Source: Escherichia coli O127:H6 str. E2348/69 (GTDB lineage: Bacteria > Pseudomonadota > Gammaproteobacteria > Enterobacterales > Enterobacteriaceae). From it: a DNA stretch of 64,000 nucleotides. Below the pieces are notes generated by a model. The model saw only the letters and a program-made list of their open reading frames with translations, did no database searches and was not told the DNA's origin. The DNA is taken from the NCBI RefSeq assembly GCF_000026545.1, contig NC_011601.1; one strand, 5' to 3'. Positions 42,767 to 64,000 of this stretch are shown one piece after another. Positions within the stretch are counted from its first letter, which is position 1. Each line of letters starts with the position of its first letter. The position numbers and the translations under genes are program-made.

Positions 42767-43183
42767 TCATTCGCTCCCCTCTTTTTCCTTATTTCGTTGA
42801 ACGCCAATTGCGACACACGTACTAAGCAAATCTTTACATTTCTCTACATCTTCAGACTTACGCAATTTGATGCTTTTTACAGACTGCGGGCTACTGTCCG
42901 TAGCACGATACATCGTTATTTCAATATCATTTCGGTCTAAGAGTCCCATAATGGCTTTTGCAACCTCCACACCCTTCTTCGCGAAATCAAAGAACAGAGC
43001 AAGTTTATATGGATTTTCGACGGAAAAAACTTCAATTTTGCTAAAACCAACATCGTGTAGAGAAAAATATTGCTCAACCTCATCTCGAAGTTCTGGATCG
43101 CATACAATGTCTATTCTCCAGTACTGACCTAAATGCAAATCGCTATTAACTGTTTTTTCCACAACATCCTCCTTACCCAGCAA
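42767..43183 (-). CDS. Hypothetical protein (138 aa), AT-rich, immediately downstream of and overlapping the int stop
   Basis: Complete ORF with acidic/lysine-rich composition; no family recognised. Confidence 0.45.
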   Translation of the reverse strand: MLGKEDVVEKTVNSDLHLGQYWRIDIVCDPELRDEVEQYFSLHDVGFSKIEVFSVENPYKLALFFDFAKKGVEVAKAIMGLLDRNDIEITMYRATDSSPQSVKSIKLRKSEDVEKCKDLLSTCVAIGVQRNKEKEGSE

Positions 43184-44147
43184 TAGGATTAAATCTCACC
43201 GCATCCTGCAAGTAATCCGGCGCAAGATGGGCATAAATCATCGTTGTCTGAATCTTTGCGTGCCCCAGAATTTTCTGGAGCGTCAGAATATTGCCGCCGT
43301 TCATCATGAAATGACTGGCGAAGGTGTGGCGCAGCGCATGAACAGCCTGGCCGTCAGGAACATCAGGTGCGACCGTTTTGATGACATCGCGAACCAATGG
43401 ATAATCCAGCGTCGGAAACACCAGTTTCCCGCCCCGTTTTTTGATCTTTTCAAACAGGCTTTCAGAAATAGGAACGGTACGGTTTTTGCTGTTCTTCGTT
43501 TTTGAAAAAGTGATTCGACAATGAAGAACACGGCGCTGCTCCAGTGCCGCTACCTCGCCCCATCGCGCCCCGGTCGACAGAAGGATTTCGACAGCCAGCC
43601 GTTCATCGGGATTTTCAGCCAGTGCATCCAGCAACTGAACACATTCAGACTTACTCAGATATCCCATTTCGCGCTCGTTAACCTTCATTCCTTTAAGGCC
43701 TTGAACGGGGTTATCGTTAAGAAAATGGCCGGATGAGATGAGTGCGGTAAACATCGCGCTTAACGCCCCAATCTCTCGATTAATGGTGCTGGGCTGTATC
43801 CCCTGCTCTATCCTGGACACACGTAGCTCGGTGAGCATCGTTGTATTAAGTTTATGCACACACGGGTCATCCATTGCCTCACTCAAGCGCAGCAATTTAA
43901 GGCGCGTGTTATGCCCTGACTTCATTAGCTGGCCGTGGTATTTCCACCACAAGTCAATAAGCACCGACAGCGGACGGCGATCAATGGAGTTTCCTTTCCA
44001 CTCATTGTTATGCTGTTGCGCCAGCACCCACCGCTCATATAAAACTGCATCCGATTTCGTTTTAAATTTTTTGCGAATGCGTTTGCCTTTACGCCCCTCA
44101 GGGCGCATGTCAAGAAGATACCCTCCCGGAATTGATTTTATGCTCAT
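43173..44147 (-). CDS. int: Tyrosine integrase (P2 Int-like)
   Basis: Strong similarity to P2 integrase (…EGRKGKRIRKKF…, …LSTGARWGE…, …HALRHTFASHFMMNGGNILTLQKILGH…MIYAH…); start taken at internal Met (MSIKSIPGGY) of the 374-aa ORF. Confidence 0.9.
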   Translation of the reverse strand: MSIKSIPGGYLLDMRPEGRKGKRIRKKFKTKSDAVLYERWVLAQQHNNEWKGNSIDRRPLSVLIDLWWKYHGQLMKSGHNTRLKLLRLSEAMDDPCVHKLNTTMLTELRVSRIEQGIQPSTINREIGALSAMFTALISSGHFLNDNPVQGLKGMKVNEREMGYLSKSECVQLLDALAENPDERLAVEILLSTGARWGEVAALEQRRVLHCRITFSKTKNSKNRTVPISESLFEKIKKRGGKLVFPTLDYPLVRDVIKTVAPDVPDGQAVHALRHTFASHFMMNGGNILTLQKILGHAKIQTTMIYAHLAPDYLQDAVRFNPIAG

Positions 44148-49839: not shown

Positions 49840-50799
49840 ATGAAAATTTGTATCGACGACGGCTCCACCAACATCAAGCTGGCATGGACTGAGAACGGCG
49901 AACACCGCAACGCCATCAGCCCGAACAGCTTCAAGTCGGAATGGTCTGCGCCGTTCGGTGGCACGCAGCCCGCGAACTACATGCTTGATGGCGTGCGCTA
50001 TGGTTTTGATCCGGTCAGCGATCGCTTTGTCCAGACGACCGACACGCAATACCAGTACAGCGATGTGAATGTCATTGCCATTCATCATGCGCTGGTCAAA
50101 TCAGGCATCACGCCACAGGAGGTGGATGTGGTTGTCACCCTGCCACTGAGCGAGTATTTCGACACAAACGCACAGCCGGACATGGCCAACATCAACCGCA
50201 AAAAAGCGAACGTTATGCGCCCGGTGGAGTACCAAAACGGCGAGGCATTCACTATCCGTAACGTGCGGGTTATGCCTGAATCCATTCCGGCTGGCTTTAA
50301 AGCACTGGCTGACATGAGTCCGTTTGAATCCCTGCTGATTGTGGATTTGGGCGGAACCACGCTGGATGTGGCAAAGGTTCAGGGGCAACTGGCAGGTATC
50401 AGCCAGGTGTTTTGCGATCCACACGTAGGCGTTTCTCTGATGGCCGATGCCGTGCTGTCGGTGATGGCCACCAACGGTATGCGCACCAGTCACCACATCG
50501 CCAATACCATTATCGAACATCGCCACGATGAAGCCTGGCTGCGCCAGCACATCCACAATGACGCGCATTACGCCAGCCTGATGGCAGTTATTCGTGAAAA
50601 GGAGGAAACACTGAAACAACGCGTGATCCGCGCGCTGGCGGTTTTTTCGGGTTACGGGCGGGTGATGGTTGTCGGTGGAGGGGCGGAGATTGTGGCACCC
50701 GCTATCCGCGAAGCCTGCGGAGTTAATGCGACTTTCATCGCGGACGGGGTGCCACAGTTTGCTCTGGTTAATGGGCTGTACGCAATGGACAAGGAGTAA
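49840..50799 (+). CDS. parM: ParM/StbA-like actin-type partition ATPase
   Basis: IDDGSTNIKL...ISPNSFK...YSDVNVIAIHHAL...RKKANV...VMPESIPAG...DLGGTTLD...VVGGGAE closely parallels plasmid R1 ParM. Confidence 0.85.
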   Translation: MKICIDDGSTNIKLAWTENGEHRNAISPNSFKSEWSAPFGGTQPANYMLDGVRYGFDPVSDRFVQTTDTQYQYSDVNVIAIHHALVKSGITPQEVDVVVTLPLSEYFDTNAQPDMANINRKKANVMRPVEYQNGEAFTIRNVRVMPESIPAGFKALADMSPFESLLIVDLGGTTLDVAKVQGQLAGISQVFCDPHVGVSLMADAVLSVMATNGMRTSHHIANTIIEHRHDEAWLRQHIHNDAHYASLMAVIREKEETLKQRVIRALAVFSGYGRVMVVGGGAEIVAPAIREACGVNATFIADGVPQFALVNGLYAMDKE

Positions 50800-50803
50800 A
50801 CCA

Positions 50804-51115
50804 ATGACGACTCCAACCAGACGGATAAGTTTCTATCTGAAGCCCACCGCCGTCAAGAACGAAGGAGAAGCATGCGCCTGGCTGGACAGCCTTACACCAG
50901 AAGCCCGCAAAAGCGGCCAACGCGTGGCTTTTCTGGCCGGGCTGGCACTTCTGAAAATGAATCCGGCAGAGGCTTACCGACTGGCTGCATGGGCTGATGA
51001 TGAGGTGTTATCAGTGACACAAACCAAGACAGAACGCCCCGCGTCACAGCCAGTATCAACCGCACAGATAACCAGTCAGATGGCCGGAAATATCCGGGCG
51101 TTATTTCCTGAATAA
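50804..51115 (+). CDS. parR: ParR-like centromere-binding adaptor
   Basis: RRISFYLKP...WLDSLTPEARKSGQRVAFLAGLAL...RALFPE parallels R1 ParR (RTIAFKLNP...TLDSIP..RS..RAALTAGLAL...SLFPKE); internal-Met start. Confidence 0.7.
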   Translation: MTTPTRRISFYLKPTAVKNEGEACAWLDSLTPEARKSGQRVAFLAGLALLKMNPAEAYRLAAWADDEVLSVTQTKTERPASQPVSTAQITSQMAGNIRALFPE

Positions 51116-51493: not shown

Positions 51494-52576
51494 ATGGTAA
51501 ACGTGAGGGAGGATGAACTTTTCAAACTCATCGAGCAAGGCATCAAAGGCAACGCAAATGCATTTACACTCCTATGCAGAAAGATGATTAACAACATCCG
51601 TAAAAATGATGAGGCTTTAGCTTCTAAGCTGGCTTCGTTAGTTGCTGAGGGAACAGTATTACGTGGGGCATCTAGTAAGGCTCCTATGCCTGTGGATGGA
51701 GACTCCAGACGAAACCTTTTGCAGGAAACATCTGTCAACGCAATTGTTGAAGAACCTGTATGGAATACGGATATCTCAAAGAAGCTGGAGTCAATTGTTA
51801 ACGAAAGAGAGAATGCGGTTTCTTTGTTCAAAGCTGGTCTTGAACCTGTGAAGACGGTTTTACTTTCTGGCCCGCCAGGCGTAGGCAAAACAATGTCCGC
51901 ACATTGGCTTGCTGCAAAGTTAAATTTACCTCTTTTAACATTGGATCTCTCATCTGTAATGAGTTCTCTTTTGGGAAAAACAGGTAATAATATTAAATCC
52001 GTTATGGATTATGCCAAAGAGAAACCATGTGTCCTTTTGCTTGATGAATTTGATGCTGTTGCAAAAAGACGTGATGATGACAGGGACGTTGGAGAATTAA
52101 AACGTTTAGTTACTGTACTCCTACAGACCATAGATGAGTGGCCAGCGACCTCGCTTCTTGTTGCTGCGACTAATCACCCTGATATCTTAGATCCGGCTGT
52201 TTGGCGTCGATTTGAGCACATCCTTAAATTTAATATGCCATCAGTAGAACTGATAGATAGATATTTAGTCAATCATAATATTGAACCTGAACTATCTAAA
52301 AAACTTGCACCATTATTAGATGGCATGTCCTTTGCCATCATTAACCGTATTTTGAATTTCTCCAAAAAGAATGAGGTACTTAGAAATATTCCATTTGAAA
52401 GCTCATTAATAGAAGCCGTAATTACGGAGAGGGTTTCATTGGATGAGTTTAGCGATAATGATCTCAATATAATTAAATATCATTTTGACGGTTTTTCAAA
52501 TAGGAAGATAGCTGAATTAGTTGGTGTTTCACATCCAACAATCGCGAATAAATTACAAAAGTGGGGGATTAAATGA
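51494..52576 (+). CDS. Classic-clade AAA+ ATPase with C-terminal LuxR/GerE-like HTH (360 aa); candidate defence component
   Basis: Walker A GPPGVGKT (aa 126-133), Walker B LLLDEFD (aa 181-187), sensor-1 ATN, second-region-of-homology-like DILDPAVWRRFEH; C-terminal NRKIAELVGVSHPTIANKLQKWGI HTH. Confidence 0.85.
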   Translation: MVNVREDELFKLIEQGIKGNANAFTLLCRKMINNIRKNDEALASKLASLVAEGTVLRGASSKAPMPVDGDSRRNLLQETSVNAIVEEPVWNTDISKKLESIVNERENAVSLFKAGLEPVKTVLLSGPPGVGKTMSAHWLAAKLNLPLLTLDLSSVMSSLLGKTGNNIKSVMDYAKEKPCVLLLDEFDAVAKRRDDDRDVGELKRLVTVLLQTIDEWPATSLLVAATNHPDILDPAVWRRFEHILKFNMPSVELIDRYLVNHNIEPELSKKLAPLLDGMSFAIINRILNFSKKNEVLRNIPFESSLIEAVITERVSLDEFSDNDLNIIKYHFDGFSNRKIAELVGVSHPTIANKLQKWGIK

Positions 52577-54777
52577 TGGAAAGGAACTTACTTTTAGGTA
52601 ACGGTCATGTTCTGACAAAAAAGGAACCTTTGCCTAAAGGAAGGGATGGTAAGCGCTATCCCTATACTCTTGAAGAAGTAAGGGAGCATTTAAACCCAGA
52701 GATTGATACTTTACTCTCACGCTTTCGCAGTTTGGATGATGCGGCTAAGCCAAGGGGGGAGAGTGTATTCAATTTAACTTTACACCCAGCGTTTTTGGGT
52801 AAAAGCTACTTTCCGGAAGGATTGCTTAGAGCGACAGGTTTACGGGATGTCGGCAGCCGTCAGGTAATCATTCGCCCACGGAAAGCGGCACGTCAGTGCG
52901 ATCAGAATAAGGACTTAGTAACGGCGCAACTGTTTGTTAGCGGTGATGATGATGCCGTTATAAGATTTAAGGAAATTTTAAATTCCCCTACAGCTCCGAA
53001 GGGCGTACAAAAGGATTTGATCGAAATTGAAAGTGTTAGCTTTTTTGAAGGAAAAGAGAGAGCACGCAATTTTGAGCATGCGAAAAGTGATTTGATAAAA
53101 TTTGAAGTGGTTCTTCATGCTGGGGTTGAAGACGATGATATCGTTAAAGCCTATATTAGCTATGCGGCACAATATGATGTCTCTGTTGATTACAAAAGTA
53201 GAATCCAAGTTGGTGGGCTGACTTTCATCGTTGCACACGCGCGACCTGAAGATATGAAAAAAACACTCGATTTTTCATTAATCCGCGTTGTGCGGCCGAT
53301 GCCGTCTCTCAGGTGTACTCAGCCGAACATTGTCAGAAAGTTATCTAATATAGTTACACCGGAGCTCCCTAATTCTAAAGCTGTTCTTGAATCCGAACGT
53401 ATTGCCATTTTTGATGGTGGCTTGGGGACAGCTGACTTGAGTAATTGGGTTACGGAATACGTGTATCCAGACACCAAAGAAACAAGCGGATTATTATTGC
53501 AGCACGGTAATGAAGTGACATCCACTTTCTTATTCGGACGTGTCGAGGAAAATGCACCTTCTTTTAAAAGACCGTTTATGAATGTAGATCATTATAGAGT
53601 TCTTTCACCGACATCAGGTGACAATGGCAATTGGGATTTATTTGATGTCCTTAAGAAAATACAGTCCGTTCTTGATAGTGGTGACTATAAGTTCGCTAAT
53701 CTAAGTATTGGTCCTCATCTTCCAATTGGTGATGATGAGGTTCATGTATGGACTGCTGTTTTAGACCAAATCTGTGCTAAGCATGGGATATTACTTACTG
53801 TTGCTGTTGGGAATGATGGCAATGAGGACGGTGATGCAGCGAGAATACAACCTCCTTCCGATATGGTAAACGCGCTAGCGATTGGTGCTGCTGATCGTAG
53901 CGGTGAAAAATGGGGGCGGGCACCATATAGCTGTATTGGGCCAGGCAGAAGCCCCGGATTCGTTAAACCTGATGGTGTTATTTTTGGTGGAAGCGACGAC
54001 GAGCCTTTTTACACTTACAACCCTCTGCTTGGTTCTATAGTTGGAGTTCAAGGAACCAGTTATGCCTCTCCATTAGCATTGAGAACGGCCGCTGGAGTTG
54101 CGGCTCTATCAGGAACTCCATTGAACACCATTGCATTGAAAGCGTTGCTTGTTCATCATGCTGAAACATCAAGAAAATATTCGCGTGAACATATCGGTTG
54201 GGGACGGTTTAGTGAGGATCCTAACGTTTTAATCGATTGTCCAAATGATACTGCTACAGTAATTTACTATGGTTCATTAGCAAAAAATAAATATTTAAGG
54301 GCACCGATCCCATTCCCTGATGTTCCCTTTGACGAAGCATTTGAGCTTACCGCTACTTTATGCATTCAAACCCCAGTAGATCCTGAACATTCAGTAAACT
54401 ATACAAGGGCCGGTATGCAGGTAACTTTCCGCCCAAGATTCGGCCTTGACGATACCGATACAGATGATTTCTTTGGTCAAAAAAGCCAGTATAAGACTGA
54501 AAGGGAGTGTAGGAGTGAAGGTCATAAGTGGGAAACTTGTTTGCACAGAAGCAAAAAGTTCAGTGCTGATACATTATTAAGCGATCCAGTTTTTGATATA
54601 CGGTATCATGCCCGAGATTCTTCGCGCCATGTTAAGGGAGTTTCAGCCCCTGATATGCAATATGCGATGGTAATAAGCGTAAGGGTAAAAGACTTTGATT
54701 TATATAATGTTATTCGCCAGCGATATACAATTCTGAATCCTATTCAACTGCGCACACAAATTTCTCTCGACACGTAA
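52573..54777 (+). CDS. Subtilisin-like (S8) serine peptidase, 734 aa, no signal peptide; candidate defence effector
   Basis: Catalytic order D-H-N-S: IAIFDGG (D281), HGNEVTS (H311), VAVGNDG (N414), GTSYASPLA (S496); ~270-aa N-terminal and ~230-aa C-terminal regions unassigned; start overlaps ATPase stop (ATGA). Confidence 0.85.
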   Translation: MMERNLLLGNGHVLTKKEPLPKGRDGKRYPYTLEEVREHLNPEIDTLLSRFRSLDDAAKPRGESVFNLTLHPAFLGKSYFPEGLLRATGLRDVGSRQVIIRPRKAARQCDQNKDLVTAQLFVSGDDDAVIRFKEILNSPTAPKGVQKDLIEIESVSFFEGKERARNFEHAKSDLIKFEVVLHAGVEDDDIVKAYISYAAQYDVSVDYKSRIQVGGLTFIVAHARPEDMKKTLDFSLIRVVRPMPSLRCTQPNIVRKLSNIVTPELPNSKAVLESERIAIFDGGLGTADLSNWVTEYVYPDTKETSGLLLQHGNEVTSTFLFGRVEENAPSFKRPFMNVDHYRVLSPTSGDNGNWDLFDVLKKIQSVLDSGDYKFANLSIGPHLPIGDDEVHVWTAVLDQICAKHGILLTVAVGNDGNEDGDAARIQPPSDMVNALAIGAADRSGEKWGRAPYSCIGPGRSPGFVKPDGVIFGGSDDEPFYTYNPLLGSIVGVQGTSYASPLALRTAAGVAALSGTPLNTIALKALLVHHAETSRKYSREHIGWGRFSEDPNVLIDCPNDTATVIYYGSLAKNKYLRAPIPFPDVPFDEAFELTATLCIQTPVDPEHSVNYTRAGMQVTFRPRFGLDDTDTDDFFGQKSQYKTERECRSEGHKWETCLHRSKKFSADTLLSDPVFDIRYHARDSSRHVKGVSAPDMQYAMVISVRVKDFDLYNVIRQRYTILNPIQLRTQISLDT

Positions 54778-56328: not shown

Positions 56329-58079
56329 CAGAACTCCATAACCGTGAAACGCTCGTTTTCTCCTTCGCCGCCAATCGGTTCGTTAATGACAGCAAGCATG
56401 GTTGCCCACGCAAGGTCGCCGTGGCTGATCCCCCTCGCGCGGTCCGTTTCGTAAGTGATAAAGCCGCCCGGTGTTTTCACCTTACGCACGGCGTTAAAGG
56501 CCGCGACCAGCTCGCGTTCGGCGCGATCGTATTCCCACCGCCCGGCACGCATTATGTGCAGCATTTTCAGTACCAGCGACCGTTTTGATGACAGCGTGAA
56601 GGTGTACGGAATAGCAGCAGGGAAAAACCGTTTCACTATCTGATAAACAGCCTCCCCGTTCCCGCCCGTCACATCAATGCCGATGTGTTCCACGTTGTAG
56701 CGATACGTGAACTCTTCAATGACTCTGGCCTGTTCTTCAAACTCCAGCCCTTGAACGCGTCGCGTCTCCACCGTTCGAAAACGGCCACCAGGAACAGCCG
56801 GAGGAACCACCACGGACACAGCGCCGCTGTCGCCGTTGCCACTACTGCCGTTTGCGTCATACCCAATCCATACCGGACGATTCCCCATCGGGCGGGGAGC
56901 AAAAGGTTTCCAGTCTTTCCAGTCGTCGTATCCGTCAACACCGCAGCCAATCAGGATATTCAGGTTAAATGCCGATTCCCCTTCGCGGACAAACTCACAC
57001 ATATAGAGATTGAGGAACTCGTCTTCGGTGTTTTCATCACGAATTTCGTCGATATCAGTGTGTTTCCAGCCGTGATTAACCACATCTTCCAGCGTGACAA
57101 TTTGCCGCCACGTCCGGTCAGGGCAGATAAGCCCGTTATGCAGCGTTTTCCAGTCCACAGAAAAACGCTGGCGTTTATGCGAGGCCTTTTTCTCATTCCA
57201 GCGGTCGCCGTTCCAGTAGGCGTATGCCTCGTGCGTTTCGGTGGATGGCGTGGAGAAGTAGGTGCGCCGCAGTCCGCTGAGGGTTGCCATAGCGCCAGCC
57301 ACCTTGCGCAGTTCAGCAAAGCGACTGACCCAGAAAAATTCATCAAAATAAAAATTGCCCGTATAGGACTGTGCCGACGCAGCAGAAGTGCCGAGAAAAT
57401 GCAGCTCTGCGCCGTTGGAGAGGATGATTTTATCGCCCCCTTTCAGCTCCACATCAACTTCAGCCGCGGCCTTCTGAATAATGCTTTTAAACTGGAACGC
57501 CTGACGACGCGACGCAGACAAAAAAATCTGGTTACGCTGGTAAGGTTGCGCCACATCGTCACGCAGCGCCATCAGCAGTGCTTCCTGTGCAAAATACCAG
57601 GTCGCCCCAATCTGTCGGGATTTCAGGATCATCCTGTTACGTATCCCGGCTTCCCTGCAAAGGGTCAGGGAGTCAAACCAGCCCCGCTGATGCCACTCCA
57701 GCCTGCTGATGATTTTTTCCCGCAGTGCGGCAATCTGTTCCGGCGTGAAATGATTTTTGAGTTTTTTCGCCCGGCCTTTCTTTCCTGCGGCCGTCGCATC
57801 CGGCTGGCCATCATGCAGCTTTTTAAGCTGCCGGGTCAGCAGGTCTATTTCCTTAAAGTCACCGCCTGTTTTATTCTGTTTTTCAGTAAGCTGGATGAGA
57901 CGCGCATCGATGGACTGCGTGACACGCTGCACGGGTGGCGTTTCATCCCACTGGTCACGTTTTTTCCACGCATAAATCGTGTTCGGGTTTATTCCCATCA
58001 GACGTGATATTTCTGCGGGCGGATAACCCTGCCAGTAAAGTTGCCGCGCACGCTGGCGCACAAAAGCGTCCTGAATCAT
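56328..58079 (-). CDS. P: Terminase large (ATPase) subunit (P2 gpP-like)
   Basis: 583-aa ORF; Q/P divergent from O N M L as in P2. Confidence 0.88.
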   Translation of the reverse strand: MIQDAFVRQRARQLYWQGYPPAEISRLMGINPNTIYAWKKRDQWDETPPVQRVTQSIDARLIQLTEKQNKTGGDFKEIDLLTRQLKKLHDGQPDATAAGKKGRAKKLKNHFTPEQIAALREKIISRLEWHQRGWFDSLTLCREAGIRNRMILKSRQIGATWYFAQEALLMALRDDVAQPYQRNQIFLSASRRQAFQFKSIIQKAAAEVDVELKGGDKIILSNGAELHFLGTSAASAQSYTGNFYFDEFFWVSRFAELRKVAGAMATLSGLRRTYFSTPSTETHEAYAYWNGDRWNEKKASHKRQRFSVDWKTLHNGLICPDRTWRQIVTLEDVVNHGWKHTDIDEIRDENTEDEFLNLYMCEFVREGESAFNLNILIGCGVDGYDDWKDWKPFAPRPMGNRPVWIGYDANGSSGNGDSGAVSVVVPPAVPGGRFRTVETRRVQGLEFEEQARVIEEFTYRYNVEHIGIDVTGGNGEAVYQIVKRFFPAAIPYTFTLSSKRSLVLKMLHIMRAGRWEYDRAERELVAAFNAVRKVKTPGGFITYETDRARGISHGDLAWATMLAVINEPIGGEGENERFTVMEF

Positions 58080-58233
58080 TGCTCCCCCTGAGTAATTACA
58101 GGAAGATTACCCGCGCGCGAAACTGTTCTCCTTAACCCCCTGTTCTGGCCGTTTTCTTACAACAAAAGCCCTTTGTATCAGCCTGTTACGCTTTGCCATC
58201 ATGACTGAAGAACCAGTCAGAGGGGCAAAAACT

Positions 58234-59070
58234 ATGGCTAATGAAAAAAAGACATCCCGCAAAAAGTTTCGCGTGGCTGTCTCCGGATCAACTGTTGATG
58301 GCCGTGAAATCAGTCCGGTGCATCTGCGTGAAGCCGCCGAGAACTTCAACCCGGATGTTTACGCTGCCCGCGTGAACGTTGAGCACTATCTCTCGCCATG
58401 CCCGTCAAGCGAATTTTCCGCAATGGGCGATGTCACCGCACTGAGTACGGAAGACATTACGGAAGGTCCGCTGGCCGGACGTACTGCGCTGTATGCAGAA
58501 ATCGAACCGACCGAGCGCATGAAGCAGCTTGTCGCGGACGGCAAGAAAATCTATTCCAGTATCGAACTGCACCCGCAGTTCTCCGTTAACGGGCGCGCCT
58601 ATCTGGTCGGGCTGGCGATGACCGACACCCCGGCAAGCCTGGGCACTGAGCGCCTGAAATTCACGGCACAGCAACGTCAGGCGGTGATGACGTTCAACAG
58701 TATCCAGGGTGAAGCGCCGCTTATCTCCGAAGCCATCGAGTCTGAAATCATCGAAATGGCAGAACAACGCCAGGAAGAAGGCACCCAGTGGTTTAACCGC
58801 GTAATGGGGATTATTGGCCGTGGCCGCAAAGCGGATGACGCCAGTTTTTCCCGTATTCAGGAAGCGGTGGAAGGCGTCGCAACGTCACAGGCCGACATTA
58901 TCGACCGTTTTAATGTGCTGGAAACCCGCCATCAGCAGGACCGCCAGAAAATTACGTCACTGACCACAGAGCTGGCAGCACTGAAGGAAAAACTGCGCAC
59001 GCAGGACGGCGATCCGCAGAACCGGTTCACCGCAACAGGTGCAGCCTCCGACCAGCTGGCTGACTTCTGA
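58234..59070 (+). CDS. O: Capsid scaffolding protein (P2 gpO-like)
   Basis: Similarity to P2 O (…YLVGLAMTDTPASLGTE…); start at internal Met MANEKK. Confidence 0.85.
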   Translation: MANEKKTSRKKFRVAVSGSTVDGREISPVHLREAAENFNPDVYAARVNVEHYLSPCPSSEFSAMGDVTALSTEDITEGPLAGRTALYAEIEPTERMKQLVADGKKIYSSIELHPQFSVNGRAYLVGLAMTDTPASLGTERLKFTAQQRQAVMTFNSIQGEAPLISEAIESEIIEMAEQRQEEGTQWFNRVMGIIGRGRKADDASFSRIQEAVEGVATSQADIIDRFNVLETRHQQDRQKITSLTTELAALKEKLRTQDGDPQNRFTATGAASDQLADF

Positions 59071-59093
59071 TAAGACAAAGGAGCAAATTTTTT

Positions 59094-60146
59094 ATGAATC
59101 TGGTGATGTCAGATATTACCCGCAACAAGCTGGGTTGCTATATGGCGCAGCAGGCGTCGCTTAATAATATTCCGGTTTCCGCACTGGTATCGCGATTTAC
59201 CGTGGAACCCTCGGTGCAGCAGCGTTTTGAAAACGCCTCAAAGGAAAGCACCGAATTTACAAAAAGAATTAACGTGATCGGCGTGACCGACCAGAAAGGC
59301 GAAAAAATCCTCCTGGACACCACCGGGCCAATTGCACGCACGAATACCGGTTATGACGGCACAAAACGCCGTAACCCGAATAACGTGGTTGATCTGAAAA
59401 ACCGCAAATACCAGTGCGAACAGGTGAACTACGACACGTTTATTTCATATCCGCAGCTTGATGCCTGGGCGGCACATCCTGATTTTCAGTCCCGCATCAG
59501 CGCACAGATTGCCCGGCAGGTGGCGCTTGACCGCATCATGATCGGTTTCAACGGCACGTCTCACGCGGATGAGTCCAACTTCAGCACCAACAAGCTGCTT
59601 CAGGACGTTAACGTGGGATGGCTGGAGCACATCAGAACCGACGCCAGCGAACGCGTTATGAATGACGTGACGCTGACCTCCCGCAACATGGACAACACCG
59701 TGGCGCACGCGGGTAAGTATGCGAACGCTGATGCACTGGTACAGGACGCGCGTTCATCCCTGCTGGATGAATGGCACAAGGAAGCTGACGACCTTGTGGT
59801 GATTATGGGGCGCAACCTGTTTAACTCGCTGCGTCTGCCCGTGCTGAACAGCATCAGCGGCCAGAATCCCAATGCGGAATTACTTGCCGGGCAGCTCATC
59901 CTGTCATCGCGCACCATTGGCGGGCTGGGCGTGTTCCTTGCACCGTTCTTCCCGGATGCAACGATGCTGATCACCTCGTTCAACAACCTGTCGATTTACT
60001 GGCAGAAAGGTTCAATGCGTCGCCTGATGAAAGACGAGCCGGAATACAACCGCATCGCCACCTACCAGTCCATCAATGACGCTTATGTCGTTGAAGACTA
60101 TGGCAAGTGCGCGATGGTTACTGGCCTGAAGTTCGCCGACAGCTAA
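59094..60146 (+). CDS. N: Major capsid protein (P2 gpN-like)
   Basis: 350-aa ORF after scaffold gene. Confidence 0.88.
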   Translation: MNLVMSDITRNKLGCYMAQQASLNNIPVSALVSRFTVEPSVQQRFENASKESTEFTKRINVIGVTDQKGEKILLDTTGPIARTNTGYDGTKRRNPNNVVDLKNRKYQCEQVNYDTFISYPQLDAWAAHPDFQSRISAQIARQVALDRIMIGFNGTSHADESNFSTNKLLQDVNVGWLEHIRTDASERVMNDVTLTSRNMDNTVAHAGKYANADALVQDARSSLLDEWHKEADDLVVIMGRNLFNSLRLPVLNSISGQNPNAELLAGQLILSSRTIGGLGVFLAPFFPDATMLITSFNNLSIYWQKGSMRRLMKDEPEYNRIATYQSINDAYVVEDYGKCAMVTGLKFADS

Positions 60147-60191
60147 TCAACTCACGGCGGGCATCATGCCCGCCTGTAACGGAGAGAAAAA

Positions 60192-60992
60192 ATGATTACT
60201 CCTGCACAGCAACACTGGCAGAACGTGATGGCACAGCGCGCAGGCCGGGCGAATGAAGGCGTGGACCACGCCGCGCGTACCGCGCATGAAGAGGTGCTGT
60301 ATCGTCTGCGTCTGGCACAGGCCCGGCTTAAGGGCGTACAGGCCAGAAGCGCGAAAGCCGCCATCAAAAAAGAGTTGTTGCCGGATTTTTCCGGCTGGAT
60401 TGAGGGAACGCTGGAGGCTGACGGCGGGCAGCAGGATGAAGTGATTGCCACGCTGATGGTGTGGGCGATTGACTGTGGCGATCTTCCGCTGGCGTTGCGT
60501 ATTGGTGCGTATGTGGTCCGTCACAACCTCATCATGCCGGATAACTTTGGCCGTACTGCTGCCACGGTACTGACCGAAGAAATCTGTAATCCGGTACTGA
60601 CGCAGGCCGGGACGGATGCCGACGCGGATTTGTCCGCCTTTATCGAACCACTGGACACCCTCCGGGAGATTGTCACCGACCAGGACATGCCGGACGAAGT
60701 GCGCGCCAAATTATGCAAAGCGTGCGCCTTTGCCCGCCGTGGCCTGAGTGATGCGGACAGCATGGCCCTGTCACTGAAGCTGCTGCGCGAAGCAATGCAC
60801 CTGAACCCGAACGCAGGTGTGAAACGCGAGATTGCAACCCTTTCCCGCGCCCTGAAAAAAGCCGATTCCGCAGCCGCACCAGAAGATGCCAGCACACCGC
60901 AGGCGCAGGACGAAAGCAGCAAAAGTAAAAAGACAACGCGGAAGCCTGCAACACGAAAAACCACCGCGACGCAGAAGGCGAAGCGCGGTTAA
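60192..60992 (+). CDS. M: Terminase small/endonuclease subunit (P2 gpM-like)
   Basis: Contains MPDEVRAKL motif shared with P2 M. Confidence 0.85.
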   Translation: MITPAQQHWQNVMAQRAGRANEGVDHAARTAHEEVLYRLRLAQARLKGVQARSAKAAIKKELLPDFSGWIEGTLEADGGQQDEVIATLMVWAIDCGDLPLALRIGAYVVRHNLIMPDNFGRTAATVLTEEICNPVLTQAGTDADADLSAFIEPLDTLREIVTDQDMPDEVRAKLCKACAFARRGLSDADSMALSLKLLREAMHLNPNAGVKREIATLSRALKKADSAAAPEDASTPQAQDESSKSKKTTRKPATRKTTATQKAKRG

Positions 60993-61084
60993 CGACTGAC
61001 CCCGTCAGCGGGCGGCGTGCGCGGTGTTCCGGTTTGACTCCGTGACCGCTTACACCGCGCACCCACCGCCCGATTTTTTCAGGA

Positions 61085-61588
61085 GTGAACCCCATGAGTA
61101 TGGTTGCCAGAACCAACCCCGGACCCGCAGAGGACGACATCACCGATACCGATGATGGCGATACCCGCATTTCAGCGGGTGCATTCTGGCCGGATATTGT
61201 GCTGCGCGAGCTGCGTCTGGCGGTACGACTGCCGGGGCGCGTGACCACCTCCCGCCTGCTGCATACTGCCACCGGGGCTGTGGCACACGTTACCCGCGAG
61301 CTGGAAGCATGGCAGCAGGAACAGCAGGCAGCTGGCCATCAGACGCTGGCCGATGTTCCGGCACCCGTAATTAACGGAGAAAGCGTCAATCTCTGGCACT
61401 GGCGCAATGCTGTTTATACCGCCACGCGCGCCCTGATTCTGGAGCGTTATCGTGATGCAGACACTACGGACAAGGGCGACCGCCGGGCGGACGCTCTGGA
61501 TATACAGACATCGGATTTGTGGCGTGATGTGAGCTGGGCCATCTCTGACATTCTGTGCCGCCCGCGAATCTTTGCGGAGTTGTGCTGA
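61085..61588 (+). CDS. L: Head completion/stabilisation protein (P2 gpL-like)
   Basis: 167-aa ORF, position. Confidence 0.8.
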   Translation: MNPMSMVARTNPGPAEDDITDTDDGDTRISAGAFWPDIVLRELRLAVRLPGRVTTSRLLHTATGAVAHVTRELEAWQQEQQAAGHQTLADVPAPVINGESVNLWHWRNAVYTATRALILERYRDADTTDKGDRRADALDIQTSDLWRDVSWAISDILCRPRIFAELC

Positions 61589-61788
61589 TGAAAGTGAAGG
61601 CACTGGAAGGCGACACCGTGGATTCGCTCTGTTTCCGGTACTACGGCACGACGCAGGGCGTCACCGAAAAGGTGCTGGATGCCAACCCCGGACTCTGTCA
61701 GCAGGTATTTCTGGACGCCGGGCAGGAAGTGGAGATGCCGGAGCCGGAGAAGAAGAAACGAGAAATGATTCAGTTGTGGGGGGAGTAG
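61588..61788 (+). CDS. X: Tail protein X (LysM-like)
   Basis: MKVKALEGDTVDSLCFRYYGTTQGV...LWGE parallels P2 gpX; TGATG overlap with L. Confidence 0.75.
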   Translation: MKVKALEGDTVDSLCFRYYGTTQGVTEKVLDANPGLCQQVFLDAGQEVEMPEPEKKKREMIQLWGE

Positions 61789-61790
61789 CA

Positions 61791-62114
61791 GTGAGCACCA
61801 TTCAAACAGGGATCACAGAGCAGGTTATTGCGTGGCTCTTTGACCACCTGCCAACGGTGTATGCAGTAGGCGCGGCGGTCAGCATTTCCGCGCTGATGAG
61901 CCTTTATGACGGACGAACACTGGTTCAGACCGTAACGGGATCGCTGGCGTGCGGCGTTCTTGCCATGGCCGTGGCCGGGTCGTTGCGCTTCTTCGGGTTT
62001 CCTGAAGATGCCGTGACGTTTATCGGCGCATCAATCGGTTTTATGGGTGCAGAGAAAGCACGCGACAAGGTTATTGCGGCCTTTAATCGCAGGGTGAAGG
62101 AGAAGGACGAATGA
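61791..62114 (+). CDS. Y: Holin (P2 gpY-like), GTG start assumed
   Basis: Hydrophobic ~107-aa product with two or three predicted TM segments directly upstream of endolysin. Confidence 0.55.
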   Translation: MSTIQTGITEQVIAWLFDHLPTVYAVGAAVSISALMSLYDGRTLVQTVTGSLACGVLAMAVAGSLRFFGFPEDAVTFIGASIGFMGAEKARDKVIAAFNRRVKEKDE

Positions 62115-62503
62115 GCAACACATTTAAATTCAGCAGCCGGAGCGAAAAGAATTTGCAGGGCGTAAATCCTGATCTGGTGAAAGTGACCCGACGGGCACTG
62201 GAAATCTCGGAAGTGGATTTTGGTATCACCGAAGGGTTGCGCAGCCGTTACCGCCAGAAGCAACTGGTGGCCACGGGTAAGAGCCAGACCATGAACAGCC
62301 GCCACCTTACGGGGCATGCCGTGGATGTTGTGGCTTATATCGGCAGCCAGGTGTCATGGGAATGGCCGCTGTACGAAAAAATCGCAGCAGCATTCAGACA
62401 GGCCAGCCGGGAACTGAATATTCCGGTGGAATGGGGCGGCGACTGGAAGACCCTGAAAGACGGACCGCATTTTCAGTTACCACACGGAGCCTATCCGGCA
62501 TGA
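62111..62503 (+). CDS. Endolysin, peptidase M15 family (L-alanyl-D-glutamate endopeptidase type)
   Basis: 130-aa ORF resembling T5-type endolysin (MS..FKF...SEKNL..V.P.L..V.RRALE....DF.I.EG.R....Q......G.S....SRH.TG.A.D...Y). Confidence 0.8.
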   Translation: MSNTFKFSSRSEKNLQGVNPDLVKVTRRALEISEVDFGITEGLRSRYRQKQLVATGKSQTMNSRHLTGHAVDVVAYIGSQVSWEWPLYEKIAAAFRQASRELNIPVEWGGDWKTLKDGPHFQLPHGAYPA

Positions 62504-62907
62504 AGCTCTGGCCCACGCTTGGCGTCGCTTTCCTTCTGACTGCCGGATGGGGAACATCCATGCGTCTGTCGTGGTCGCTGGGCCGGGAGAACGCCAGAAA
62601 CGAAGCGCAGGCCAGCACCCTGAAAAGTACCGCCGACACCCTGAATATCATCAGCGCCGGGGTACAGGATATGCAGCAGGTGCTGGCGCAACTCCGCGTG
62701 GAAAATCAGCAACGCAATCAGGACGGAGAGGTAAGACGTGAACAGCTACGCAACGATATTGCAAAAGATGAATGCGCCCACGCTTTGCCTGACGCTCGTT
62801 TTACTGACAGGCTGCGCAGGCACGCAGAACGCGCCACTGCCAGCGCCGTCAGTCCGGCTTATACCGCAGACGCTGACCATACCGGTAACGCCTCCCCCCT
62901 TCCCTGA
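62500..62907 (+). CDS. lysB: i-spanin (LysB/Rz-like)
   Basis: N-terminal TM segment MKLWPTLGVAFLLTAGWG then coiled-coil-like periplasmic part; start overlaps endolysin stop. Confidence 0.6.
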   Translation: MKLWPTLGVAFLLTAGWGTSMRLSWSLGRENARNEAQASTLKSTADTLNIISAGVQDMQQVLAQLRVENQQRNQDGEVRREQLRNDIAKDECAHALPDARFTDRLRRHAERATASAVSPAYTADADHTGNASPLP

Positions 62908-63058
62908 CACTCCCACATGGGGAAAACTCGGTATATGGGGCGACCACCTTCTGGATGCACTGGAAACCTGTAACGCGGATAAACGGGCCATTGAATTACT
63001 GGAACAGCGCAGGCTGCAACGACTGAACAACGAGGATAACAACCATGCTGAAAACTGA
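62768..63058 (+). CDS. lysC: o-spanin lipoprotein (LysC/Rz1-like), starts inside lysB in another frame
   Basis: Signal peptide with lipobox LTGC and Pro-rich mature region. Confidence 0.55.
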   Translation: MNAPTLCLTLVLLTGCAGTQNAPLPAPSVRLIPQTLTIPVTPPPFPDTPTWGKLGIWGDHLLDALETCNADKRAIELLEQRRLQRLNNEDNNHAEN

Positions 63059-63512
63059 TTCCCTGCGTGAAGCCATGACCCGTTCATGCCGATGGTGTCA
63101 GGCCAACCCGGAAAAATTCACCATTTTCGTGGAGAGCGGCAACATTGAAACGACCGGAGAAACTCCCTCGTTTGTTTACCGCTATCAGATGGTGATGTTT
63201 GTCATGGATTACGCCGGAGAGCTGGACGACCTCACGCTGCCGCTGCTGGCCTGGTTATCCGAAAATCAGCCACAGTTGTTGCTCAATCCGGAGCGTAATC
63301 AGGACATCAAATTTTCTGCCGTTATCAATGACGATGACAGCGCCGATCTCCTGTTTACGCTCCCCCTGCGGGAACGCGTTCGCATCACGCGCAGCAGTCA
63401 GGGTACACCGCAGGCAGAACACCTGCCGGAGCCAAAACCCCGCCTGCCCTCTTCCGAAGGCGAATGGTCGCATGTATTCCAGGATGTGACGTGGGGTGAA
63501 AGCGATGGATAA
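63045..63512 (+). CDS. R: Tail completion protein (P2 gpR-like)
   Basis: 155-aa ORF, size/position as P2 R. Confidence 0.7.
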   Translation: MLKTDSLREAMTRSCRWCQANPEKFTIFVESGNIETTGETPSFVYRYQMVMFVMDYAGELDDLTLPLLAWLSENQPQLLLNPERNQDIKFSAVINDDDSADLLFTLPLRERVRITRSSQGTPQAEHLPEPKPRLPSSEGEWSHVFQDVTWGESDG

Positions 63513-64000
63513 GGCATTCATCCGCGTGGATGAAACCCTTGAGGCCATCCGCGACAGCCTGAATCAGCAGGCCATCAATAACATCGCCAGAAAGCTGGCA
63601 CAGGATTTACGCCGCGCCCAGCAGGCGCGCATCCGGTCACAGAAAGCGCCGGACGGGACCGCGTGGACACCACGCAGACGCCGCGTAACCCGGATACAGG
63701 AGCGCATTCGCTTTATCTGGAATAACGAAGCACGCACGCTGAAAAACTGGCATCACGACACGGGGAAATACGGGCGAACCATTACCGGGTGGGATGAGGA
63801 TAAAAACAATATCCGCACGTTTTACCGGGATGACATCGACCGTTTTCTGGAAATACGCACCCGGCGCATCAACCAGGACAGTACAAAGCGCGTCCCCATG
63901 TTCGTAAAACTGCGCACCGCCCGCTACCTGAAAGCCCGTGCAGATGCTTCCGGTGTGACGGTGGGTTACAGCGGCGTGGCCGCACGTATTGCACGCGTTC
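63505..64000 (+). CDS. S: Tail completion protein (P2 gpS-like), 3' end beyond window
   Basis: Open frame from ATG ~63505 (MDKAFIRVDETLEAIRDSLN...) to window end. Confidence 0.7.
   Translation, partial: MDKAFIRVDETLEAIRDSLNQQAINNIARKLAQDLRRAQQARIRSQKAPDGTAWTPRRRRVTRIQERIRFIWNNEARTLKNWHHDTGKYGRTITGWDEDKNNIRTFYRDDIDRFLEIRTRRINQDSTKRVPMFVKLRTARYLKARADASGVTVGYSGVAARIARV

Follow-up and report, generated by a model that had tools for sequence, protein, structure and literature searches.

A probable host-lysis cassette of a P88-like prophage in Escherichia coli E2348/69 and the exchange of its endolysin as a single-gene module

Escherichia phage P88 (Xuanwuvirus P88; KP063541 / NC_026014) can be induced by mitomycin and forms plaques (PMC5285337), and its GenBank record lists among its genes an 'endolysin, Peptidase M15'. 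In phage P2, a distant comparator, the lysis genes Y-K-lysA-lysB-lysC are located in the late operon between the tail genes X and R. A comparable set of genes, chiWXYZ, is found in a chitin-utilisation locus of Serratia marcescens, where it encodes a type 10 secretion system (T10SS) for chitinase export which consists of a single-start holin of the holin-3 family, the M15/LAS-type L-Ala-D-Glu endopeptidase ChiX and two spanin-like proteins. Here we describe four tightly packed genes on the + strand at positions 61791-63058 of a 64,000-nucleotide stretch of the genome of Escherichia coli O127:H6 str. E2348/69 (GCF_000026545.1, contig NC_011601.1; the whole stretch is referred to as the window), which encode, in this order, a holin, a 130-aa M15C peptidase, an i-spanin and an o-spanin. 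We consider it very likely that these genes are the host-lysis cassette of a P88-like prophage (genus Xuanwuvirus, family Peduoviridae) in E. coli E2348/69. The open reading frames (ORFs) that an earlier reading of the bare sequence (the original prediction) had placed in this interval were recovered both from the ORF list and from the raw sequence. Over positions 32719-64000, the window matches the E2348/69 chromosome at every base.

The cassette has the same gene order and the same gene junctions as that of P88, with which it shares 98.9% DNA identity over 1701 bp; the endolysins are 100% identical, and the holin, i-spanin and o-spanin differ by only 1, 2 and 4 residues, respectively. As P88 forms plaques, a near-identical cassette thus works in a live phage. 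Within a P2-type late operon, the four genes occupy the slot that is bounded by tail gene X upstream and tail-completion gene R downstream. The gene for head completion protein L precedes X, the upstream flank gpX fixes the cassette within this operon, and at the downstream end the start of gpR and the 3' end of the o-spanin gene share 14 nt. The first two junctions, between holin and endolysin and between endolysin and i-spanin, are ATGA stop/start overlaps, an arrangement that suggests translational coupling, and no promoter-like, terminator-like or P2-like attenuator sites were found on the + strand across positions 57800-64000. The prophage itself belongs to the P2 family, is integrated beside btuC and has the usual complement of head, terminase and tail genes. 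The cassette is by no means rare: at least 80% of the 1701-bp region is present in approximately 1007 out of 5426 complete E. coli genomes, about a fifth, and in a set of IMG/VR loci that were retrieved via the holin, 80 of which were kept, the M15 gene was found in the same gene order in all 80. The cassette is thus ordinary, widespread and already annotated, both in the GenBank record of P88 and in RefSeq, where its genes are labelled 'phage holin family protein', 'M15 family metallopeptidase', 'DUF2570 domain-containing protein' and 'Rz1-like lysis system protein LysC'. As a textbook-style holin/endolysin/spanin cassette it is of modest value, mainly as an example of mosaicism and for a probable correction of the o-spanin start.

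Modular replacement within the lysis cassette had already been proposed in the original prediction, and for the endolysin it is real and directly observable. In a pairwise DNA alignment with Citrobacter phage Shae_phiSM (ΦSM), an active temperate phage (PMC6456863) that is likewise assigned to Xuanwuvirus, the two sequences are near-identical outside positions 62093-62520 and cannot be aligned within them. DNA identity across the aligned pieces is 97.0%, and near-identity spans gpX, the holin without its last approximately seven codons, the i-spanin beginning at approximately codon eight, and the o-spanin. In place of the ATGA-joined M15 gene, the endolysin slot of ΦSM contains, behind a 54-nt spacer, a gene for a 181-aa protein with a GH108 and a PG_binding_3 domain (PF05838 + PF09374). 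The GH108 allele is also found within the same holin/spanin frame in 32 complete E. coli genomes, compared to the approximately 1007 genomes with the M15 allele. Several O111:H8 or Shiga toxin-producing E. coli (STEC) strains are among the carriers of the GH108 allele (ΦSM locus L002, 2594-3232; E. coli hits H72-H79).

The M15 gene in turn has homologues in phages that are otherwise unrelated, including Shiga toxin (Stx) phage phiP27 (80% identity), Salmonella siphophage 9NA (77%), Yersinia phage PY100 (64%), the Krischvirus (RB49-like) myophages (63%) and T5-like phages (38-39%), and the holins and spanins encoded beside it in phiP27, 9NA, PY100 and a T5-like phage show no BLASTP similarity to those of the E2348/69 cassette. 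The swap in the slot between ΦSM and E. coli genomes, together with the occurrence of M15 genes beside unrelated lysis genes, demonstrates that the endolysin moves as a single-gene module. We also considered a joint transfer of holin and endolysin as a single module and rejected this possibility, because endolysins with 39-80% identity are located next to unrelated holins and spanins in 9NA, phiP27, PY100 and a T5-like phage. The 80 holin relatives from IMG/VR included no alternative endolysin; all encode M15. The GC content of the M15 gene (0.547, compared to 0.55-0.60 in the neighbouring genes) does not represent a compositional anomaly and thus gives no sign of a recent arrival in the P88/ΦSM lineage. 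With M15 and GH108 alleles in a near-identical frame and with breakpoints only a few codons into the neighbouring genes, the cassette is a clean example of single-gene mosaicism.

The 130-aa protein in the endolysin position had been predicted to be a peptidase of the M15 family with L-Ala-D-Glu specificity, and a profile search assigned it to a peptidase family (Peptidase_M15_4, PF13539; 46 bits with a cut-off of 25). Its PHROG match carries the label 'endolysin', and the PDB sequences it matches include 23ri, a 'Peptidase M15C domain-containing protein' (2.1e-48), ChiX (5opz; 2.5e-48), 8q2g, a 'Peptidoglycan L-alanyl-D-glutamate endopeptidase' (2.7e-46), and the T5 endolysin 2mxz (8.8e-23). 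PDB entries 8Q2G and 23RI appear to represent the Krischvirus-type (RB49-like) endolysin family. Sequence identity is 62-64% to ChiX, to the two Krischvirus-type chains and to the PY100 endolysin, and 38-39% to T5-like endolysins. Like EndoT5 (PDB 2MXZ/8P3A) and the Krischvirus-type endolysins, which are single-domain M15C zinc L-Ala-D-Glu peptidases of approximately 130 aa, the protein contains an SxHxxGxAxD motif, a DxxH motif and a conserved Trp close to the active site. No hydrophobic stretch was found in it, which indicates that it has neither a signal sequence nor a signal-arrest-release (SAR) sequence.

The residues required for catalysis are conserved. In ChiX, the zinc ion is bound by His68, Asp75 and His123, Asp120 is catalytic (the D120A variant is inactive), and Arg47 aids substrate binding (PMC5778951). 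H65, D72, H120, D117 and R44 of the E2348/69 endolysin align with H68, D75, H123, D120 and R47 of ChiX (PDB 5OPZ) at a constant offset, and the columns of the zinc ligands, the catalytic Asp and the substrate-binding Arg are invariant in the multiple alignment. The same is true for W112, the counterpart of a Trp neighbouring the active site that is of critical importance to EndoT5 (W114) and EndoRB49 (W109; PMC10487532). Given the 62-63% identity to ChiX and to the Krischvirus-type structures, we infer that the enzyme cuts between L-Ala and D-Glu, and this part of the predicted function thus retains the status of a likely specificity derived from sequence similarity.

The original prediction had called the enzyme T5-type, which holds at the level of the family and not beyond it, as the T5-like sequence is only 39% identical and ChiX and the RB49-like endolysins, with 62-63% identity, are closer. 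In EndoT5, a mobile loop (residues 115-129, including G118 and H121) mediates activation by Ca2+, whereas EndoRB49 is described as lacking Ca2+ regulation (PMC10487532). In the E2348/69 endolysin, W112 and D117 are separated by 4 residues (KTLK), compared to 15 between W114 and D130 (of the D-G-G-H motif) in the T5-like sequence, and the endolysin thus lacks the Ca2+-binding loop of T5. HMMER and MAFFT paired the DGPH of the endolysin with the Ca2+ loop of T5, a pairing that we rejected because the D-G-G-H of T5 follows the loop and is located at the C-terminus. The short loop between Trp and Asp, which is common to the Krischvirus-type chains, groups the endolysin with the ChiX/Krischvirus (RB49-like) subgroup.

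How much of the cassette differs from that of P2 is a separate question from the exchange of the endolysin. The original prediction rightly stated that P2 gene K encodes a lysozyme-type endolysin; a PDB sequence search paired K with lambda lysozyme (1AM7; 4.6e-44), and no Pfam match was obtained for it at E<0.01. The M15 endolysin shows no BLASTP similarity to this lambda-R-like lysozyme. However, the difference from P2 goes beyond the endolysin, as the holin (PF05106) is likewise from another family than P2 Y (PF04550) and has no BLASTP similarity to it, a counterpart of lysA is absent, and similarity between the i-spanin and P2 LysB is undetectable by BLASTP. With respect to lysA, there is no BLASTP match, and no ORF is present between the endolysin and the i-spanin, whose stop and start codons overlap. 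Shared with P2 are the slot that X and R delimit in the late operon and the overlapped type of two-component spanin, in which the o-spanin is read in the +1 frame and overlaps R at its 3' end; in addition, the o-spanin shows 28% identity to P2 LysC (E 0.004 with BLASTP; both are members of PF23793). The whole cassette thus differs from that of P2 except for its position, the layout of the spanin genes and LysC. Because the flanking structural genes are just 38-48% identical to P2 at the protein level (L, X and R), P2 is only a distant comparator, and the clean swap of a single gene becomes apparent within the P88/ΦSM lineage.

The title of the original prediction had described the spanin pair as embedded. 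According to the definitions of Kongari et al. (PMC6139136), in which lambda Rz/Rz1 exemplifies the embedded and P2 the overlapped architecture, the pair is overlapped and thus of the same class as P2 lysB/lysC: the o-spanin gene, counted from the GTG start at 62738, shares 170 nt with the 3' end of the i-spanin gene and extends 151 nt past the stop codon of the latter. The prediction was correct in that the start of the o-spanin gene falls within the i-spanin gene and in a different frame; both candidate starts, GTG 62738 and ATG 62768, are in the +1 frame. The two frames remain open in all of the 44 distinct variants among the relatives, despite 94 variable sites. The i-spanin has an N-terminal membrane anchor (hydrophobic stretch at residues 3-23), a helical periplasmic domain and one periplasmic Cys (C92), and its assignment is based on the PHROG match, the topology and the position of the gene. 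For the o-spanin, which exceeds the cut-off of PF23793 (46.4 bits compared to 27), translation from the GTG codon yields a lipobox LTGC at residues 23-26 with Ala at position +2 and a predicted lipidated Cys (C26); there is one further Cys in the mature protein (C78), and the whole 106-aa protein contains 11 Pro. Periplasmic Cys residues in each spanin subunit have been discussed with respect to intermolecular disulfides (PMC6139136), and with C92 and C78 both subunits possess at least one.

The annotated start codon of the o-spanin gene probably deserves correction. GTG 62738 is preceded by the Shine-Dalgarno sequence GGAGAGG 6 nt upstream and gives rise to a lipoprotein signal of normal length (25 residues); together with the upstream GGAG it is kept in all 77 relatives, whereas ATG 62768 is lost in 2 of them. 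The lysC start in RefSeq, CTG 62789, leaves just 8 residues ahead of the lipobox Cys and is probably too far downstream. The GenBank records of P88 and ΦSM contain no annotation for the o-spanin gene. A second recombination boundary is indicated for the 3' end of the cassette, where approximately 22 of the IMG/VR relatives, along with the phages vB_EcoM-569R5 and 705R2, depart from the E2348/69 sequence over the final ~45 nt of the o-spanin gene as well as in gpR; alignments of the relatives are truncated here, and the two phages match 88% of the query.

The first gene of the cassette encodes a holin of the lambda S family (PF05106, 71.1 bits with a cut-off of 23.8). A GGGGGAG Shine-Dalgarno sequence precedes its GTG start at a distance of 5 nt, and the protein contains two clear hydrophobic stretches (residues 19-41 and 43-72) and a short one (74-87), followed by a charged C-terminal tail with 7 Lys or Arg and 5 Asp or Glu residues. 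The last of these stretches, at residues ~74-87, aligns with the region of the third transmembrane domain in a lambda S sequence. The Met-Lys-Met dual-start motif of the lambda S family, which gives rise to both holin and antiholin, was not found in the holin, which has a single GTG start at 61791; the sole in-frame GTG upstream (61776) has no Shine-Dalgarno sequence, and a start there would not introduce a charged residue. If the timing of lysis is modulated at all in this cassette, which has neither a dual start nor LysA, the mechanism is not apparent from its sequence.

Table 1. Features of the cassette and its flanks, with the matches that identify them
Feature	Position	Strand	Evidence
Tail protein X (gpX homologue)	61588..61788	+	PF05489 Phage_tail_X 8.3e-21; 48% identity to P2 X; RefSeq 'tail protein X'
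Holin, 107 aa, lambda-S family	61791..62114	+	PF05106 Phage_holin_3_1 1.1e-19; phrog_126 1.7e-35
Exchangeable segment	~62093..62520	+	Last ~7 holin codons, entire endolysin gene and first ~7 i-spanin codons
Endolysin, 130 aa, single-domain M15C (LAS-fold) zinc peptidase	62111..62503	+	PF13539 8.1e-12; phrog_465 5e-77
i-spanin, 135 aa (LysB/Rz analogue)	62500..62907	+	phrog_214 Rz-like spanin 2.1e-41; RefSeq 'DUF2570 domain-containing protein'
o-spanin lipoprotein, 106 aa (LysC/Rz1 analogue)	62738..63058	+ (+1 frame relative to i-spanin)	PF23793 LysC 3.8e-12; phrog_3001 1.1e-24
Tail completion protein R (gpR homologue)	63045..63512	+	PF06891 P2_Phage_GpR 4.6e-40; 40% identity to P2 R

Gene content and order, junctions, residue conservation and the function of a near-identical cassette in a plaque-forming phage are direct observations. 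The families involved and the established holin-endolysin-spanin pathway suggest how such a cassette would act. The genes would be transcribed late, together with the rest of the X-to-S stretch inside the late morphogenetic operon. The holin, being of the lambda S family (class I type), would accumulate in the inner membrane until it triggers and opens large holes, through which the soluble, signal-less M15C peptidase could leave the cytoplasm to cut the stem peptides of the peptidoglycan, presumably between L-Ala and D-Glu. The i-spanin, anchored in the inner membrane, and the o-spanin, an outer-membrane lipoprotein, would assemble into a complex bridging the periplasm which might disrupt the outer membrane after loss of the wall.

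Several observations weigh against the interpretation of the four genes as the lysis cassette of a P88-like prophage. The window ends within the tail genes and therefore covers only part of the prophage. The holin misses the NCBIfam equivalog model TIGR01594 (holin_lambda) by 0.5 bit (54.5 compared to 55.05), and its putative third transmembrane segment comprises only about 14 residues. Matches of the i-spanin to the LysB (TIGR03495) and DUF2570 models are all below the respective cut-offs, with 16 bits compared to 92.75 for TIGR03495. The partial coverage of the prophage in the window also speaks for the alternative that survives best, namely that the cassette is intact yet silent, a relic in a strain whose prophage is defective. 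We nevertheless consider this unlikely, as all prophage genes examined from the integrase to the baseplate are intact ORFs, with the exception of one small 'ash family' pseudogene, and as the lysis proteins are only 0-4 residues away from those of the active phage P88.

Much less probable is that the cassette represents a domesticated module similar to ChiWXYZ, which the host uses for the release of proteins rather than of phages. The set of components is indeed shared with chiWXYZ, i.e. a single-start holin of the holin-3 family, an M15 endopeptidase with 62% identity to ChiX and two spanins (ChiX was compared by sequence, and ChiW, ChiY and ChiZ by description), and a passage in PMC13284979 describes T10SSs as derivatives of phage lysis cassettes. 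ChiWXYZ, however, has no adjacent phage genes (PMC4259817), whereas the E2348/69 cassette is located between gpX and gpR in the late operon of a P2-type prophage with intact capsid, terminase and tail genes, has no cargo gene next to it and is near-identical to that of the plaque-forming P88. T10SSs are recognized by their detachment from phage structural genes and their linkage to cargo (PMC4259817); the cassette shows neither, though the components are present. A related scenario is that cassettes of this kind are the phage stock from which T10SSs of the ChiWXYZ type were recruited, and that some hosts, including enteropathogenic E. coli (EPEC), use them to release proteins from a subpopulation of cells rather than for phage egress only. 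The combination of a single-start lambda-type holin, a ChiX-like M15C peptidase and spanins with the lack of a LysA-type antiholin makes such a stock conceivable, and the occurrence of the cassette in about a fifth of the complete E. coli genomes is what suggests a use by some hosts; we regard this scenario, too, as highly improbable.

Least credible of all is that the 130-aa protein is a D-Ala-D-Ala carboxypeptidase or a VanY-like wall-remodelling enzyme instead of a phage endolysin, for which the description of PF13539 as 'D-alanyl-D-alanine carboxypeptidase' is the sole support, because the closest characterised homologues (ChiX, EndoT5 and EndoRB49-type enzymes) are all L-Ala-D-Glu endopeptidases acting on sacculi, the protein matches the 'endolysin' family phrog_465, its ORF alone between gpX and gpR (61588-63512) matches a peptidoglycan-hydrolase family, and the sister lineage fills the slot with a GH108 muramidase, so that the slot is defined by its wall-degrading function.

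Further observations concern the parts of the prophage upstream of the cassette. Its left end (42767-44147) comprises the integrase gene (43173-44147, - strand) and a small hypothetical gene (42767-43162) that adjoins btuC. At 49840-51115 (+ strand), genes for a ParM-type 'plasmid segregation protein' and for 'plasmid partitioning/stability' adjoin the replication endonuclease gene of the prophage; an integrated P2-like phage does not usually carry cargo of this kind. Between the replication and partition genes and the portal gene (51494-54777, + strand), an AAA ATPase (360 aa) is followed by an S8 peptidase (734 aa), and this pair matches the anti-phage defence pair IetA (3.6e-89) and IetS (6.6e-41) in PADLOC, and thus has the appearance of a defence system that the prophage carries as cargo.

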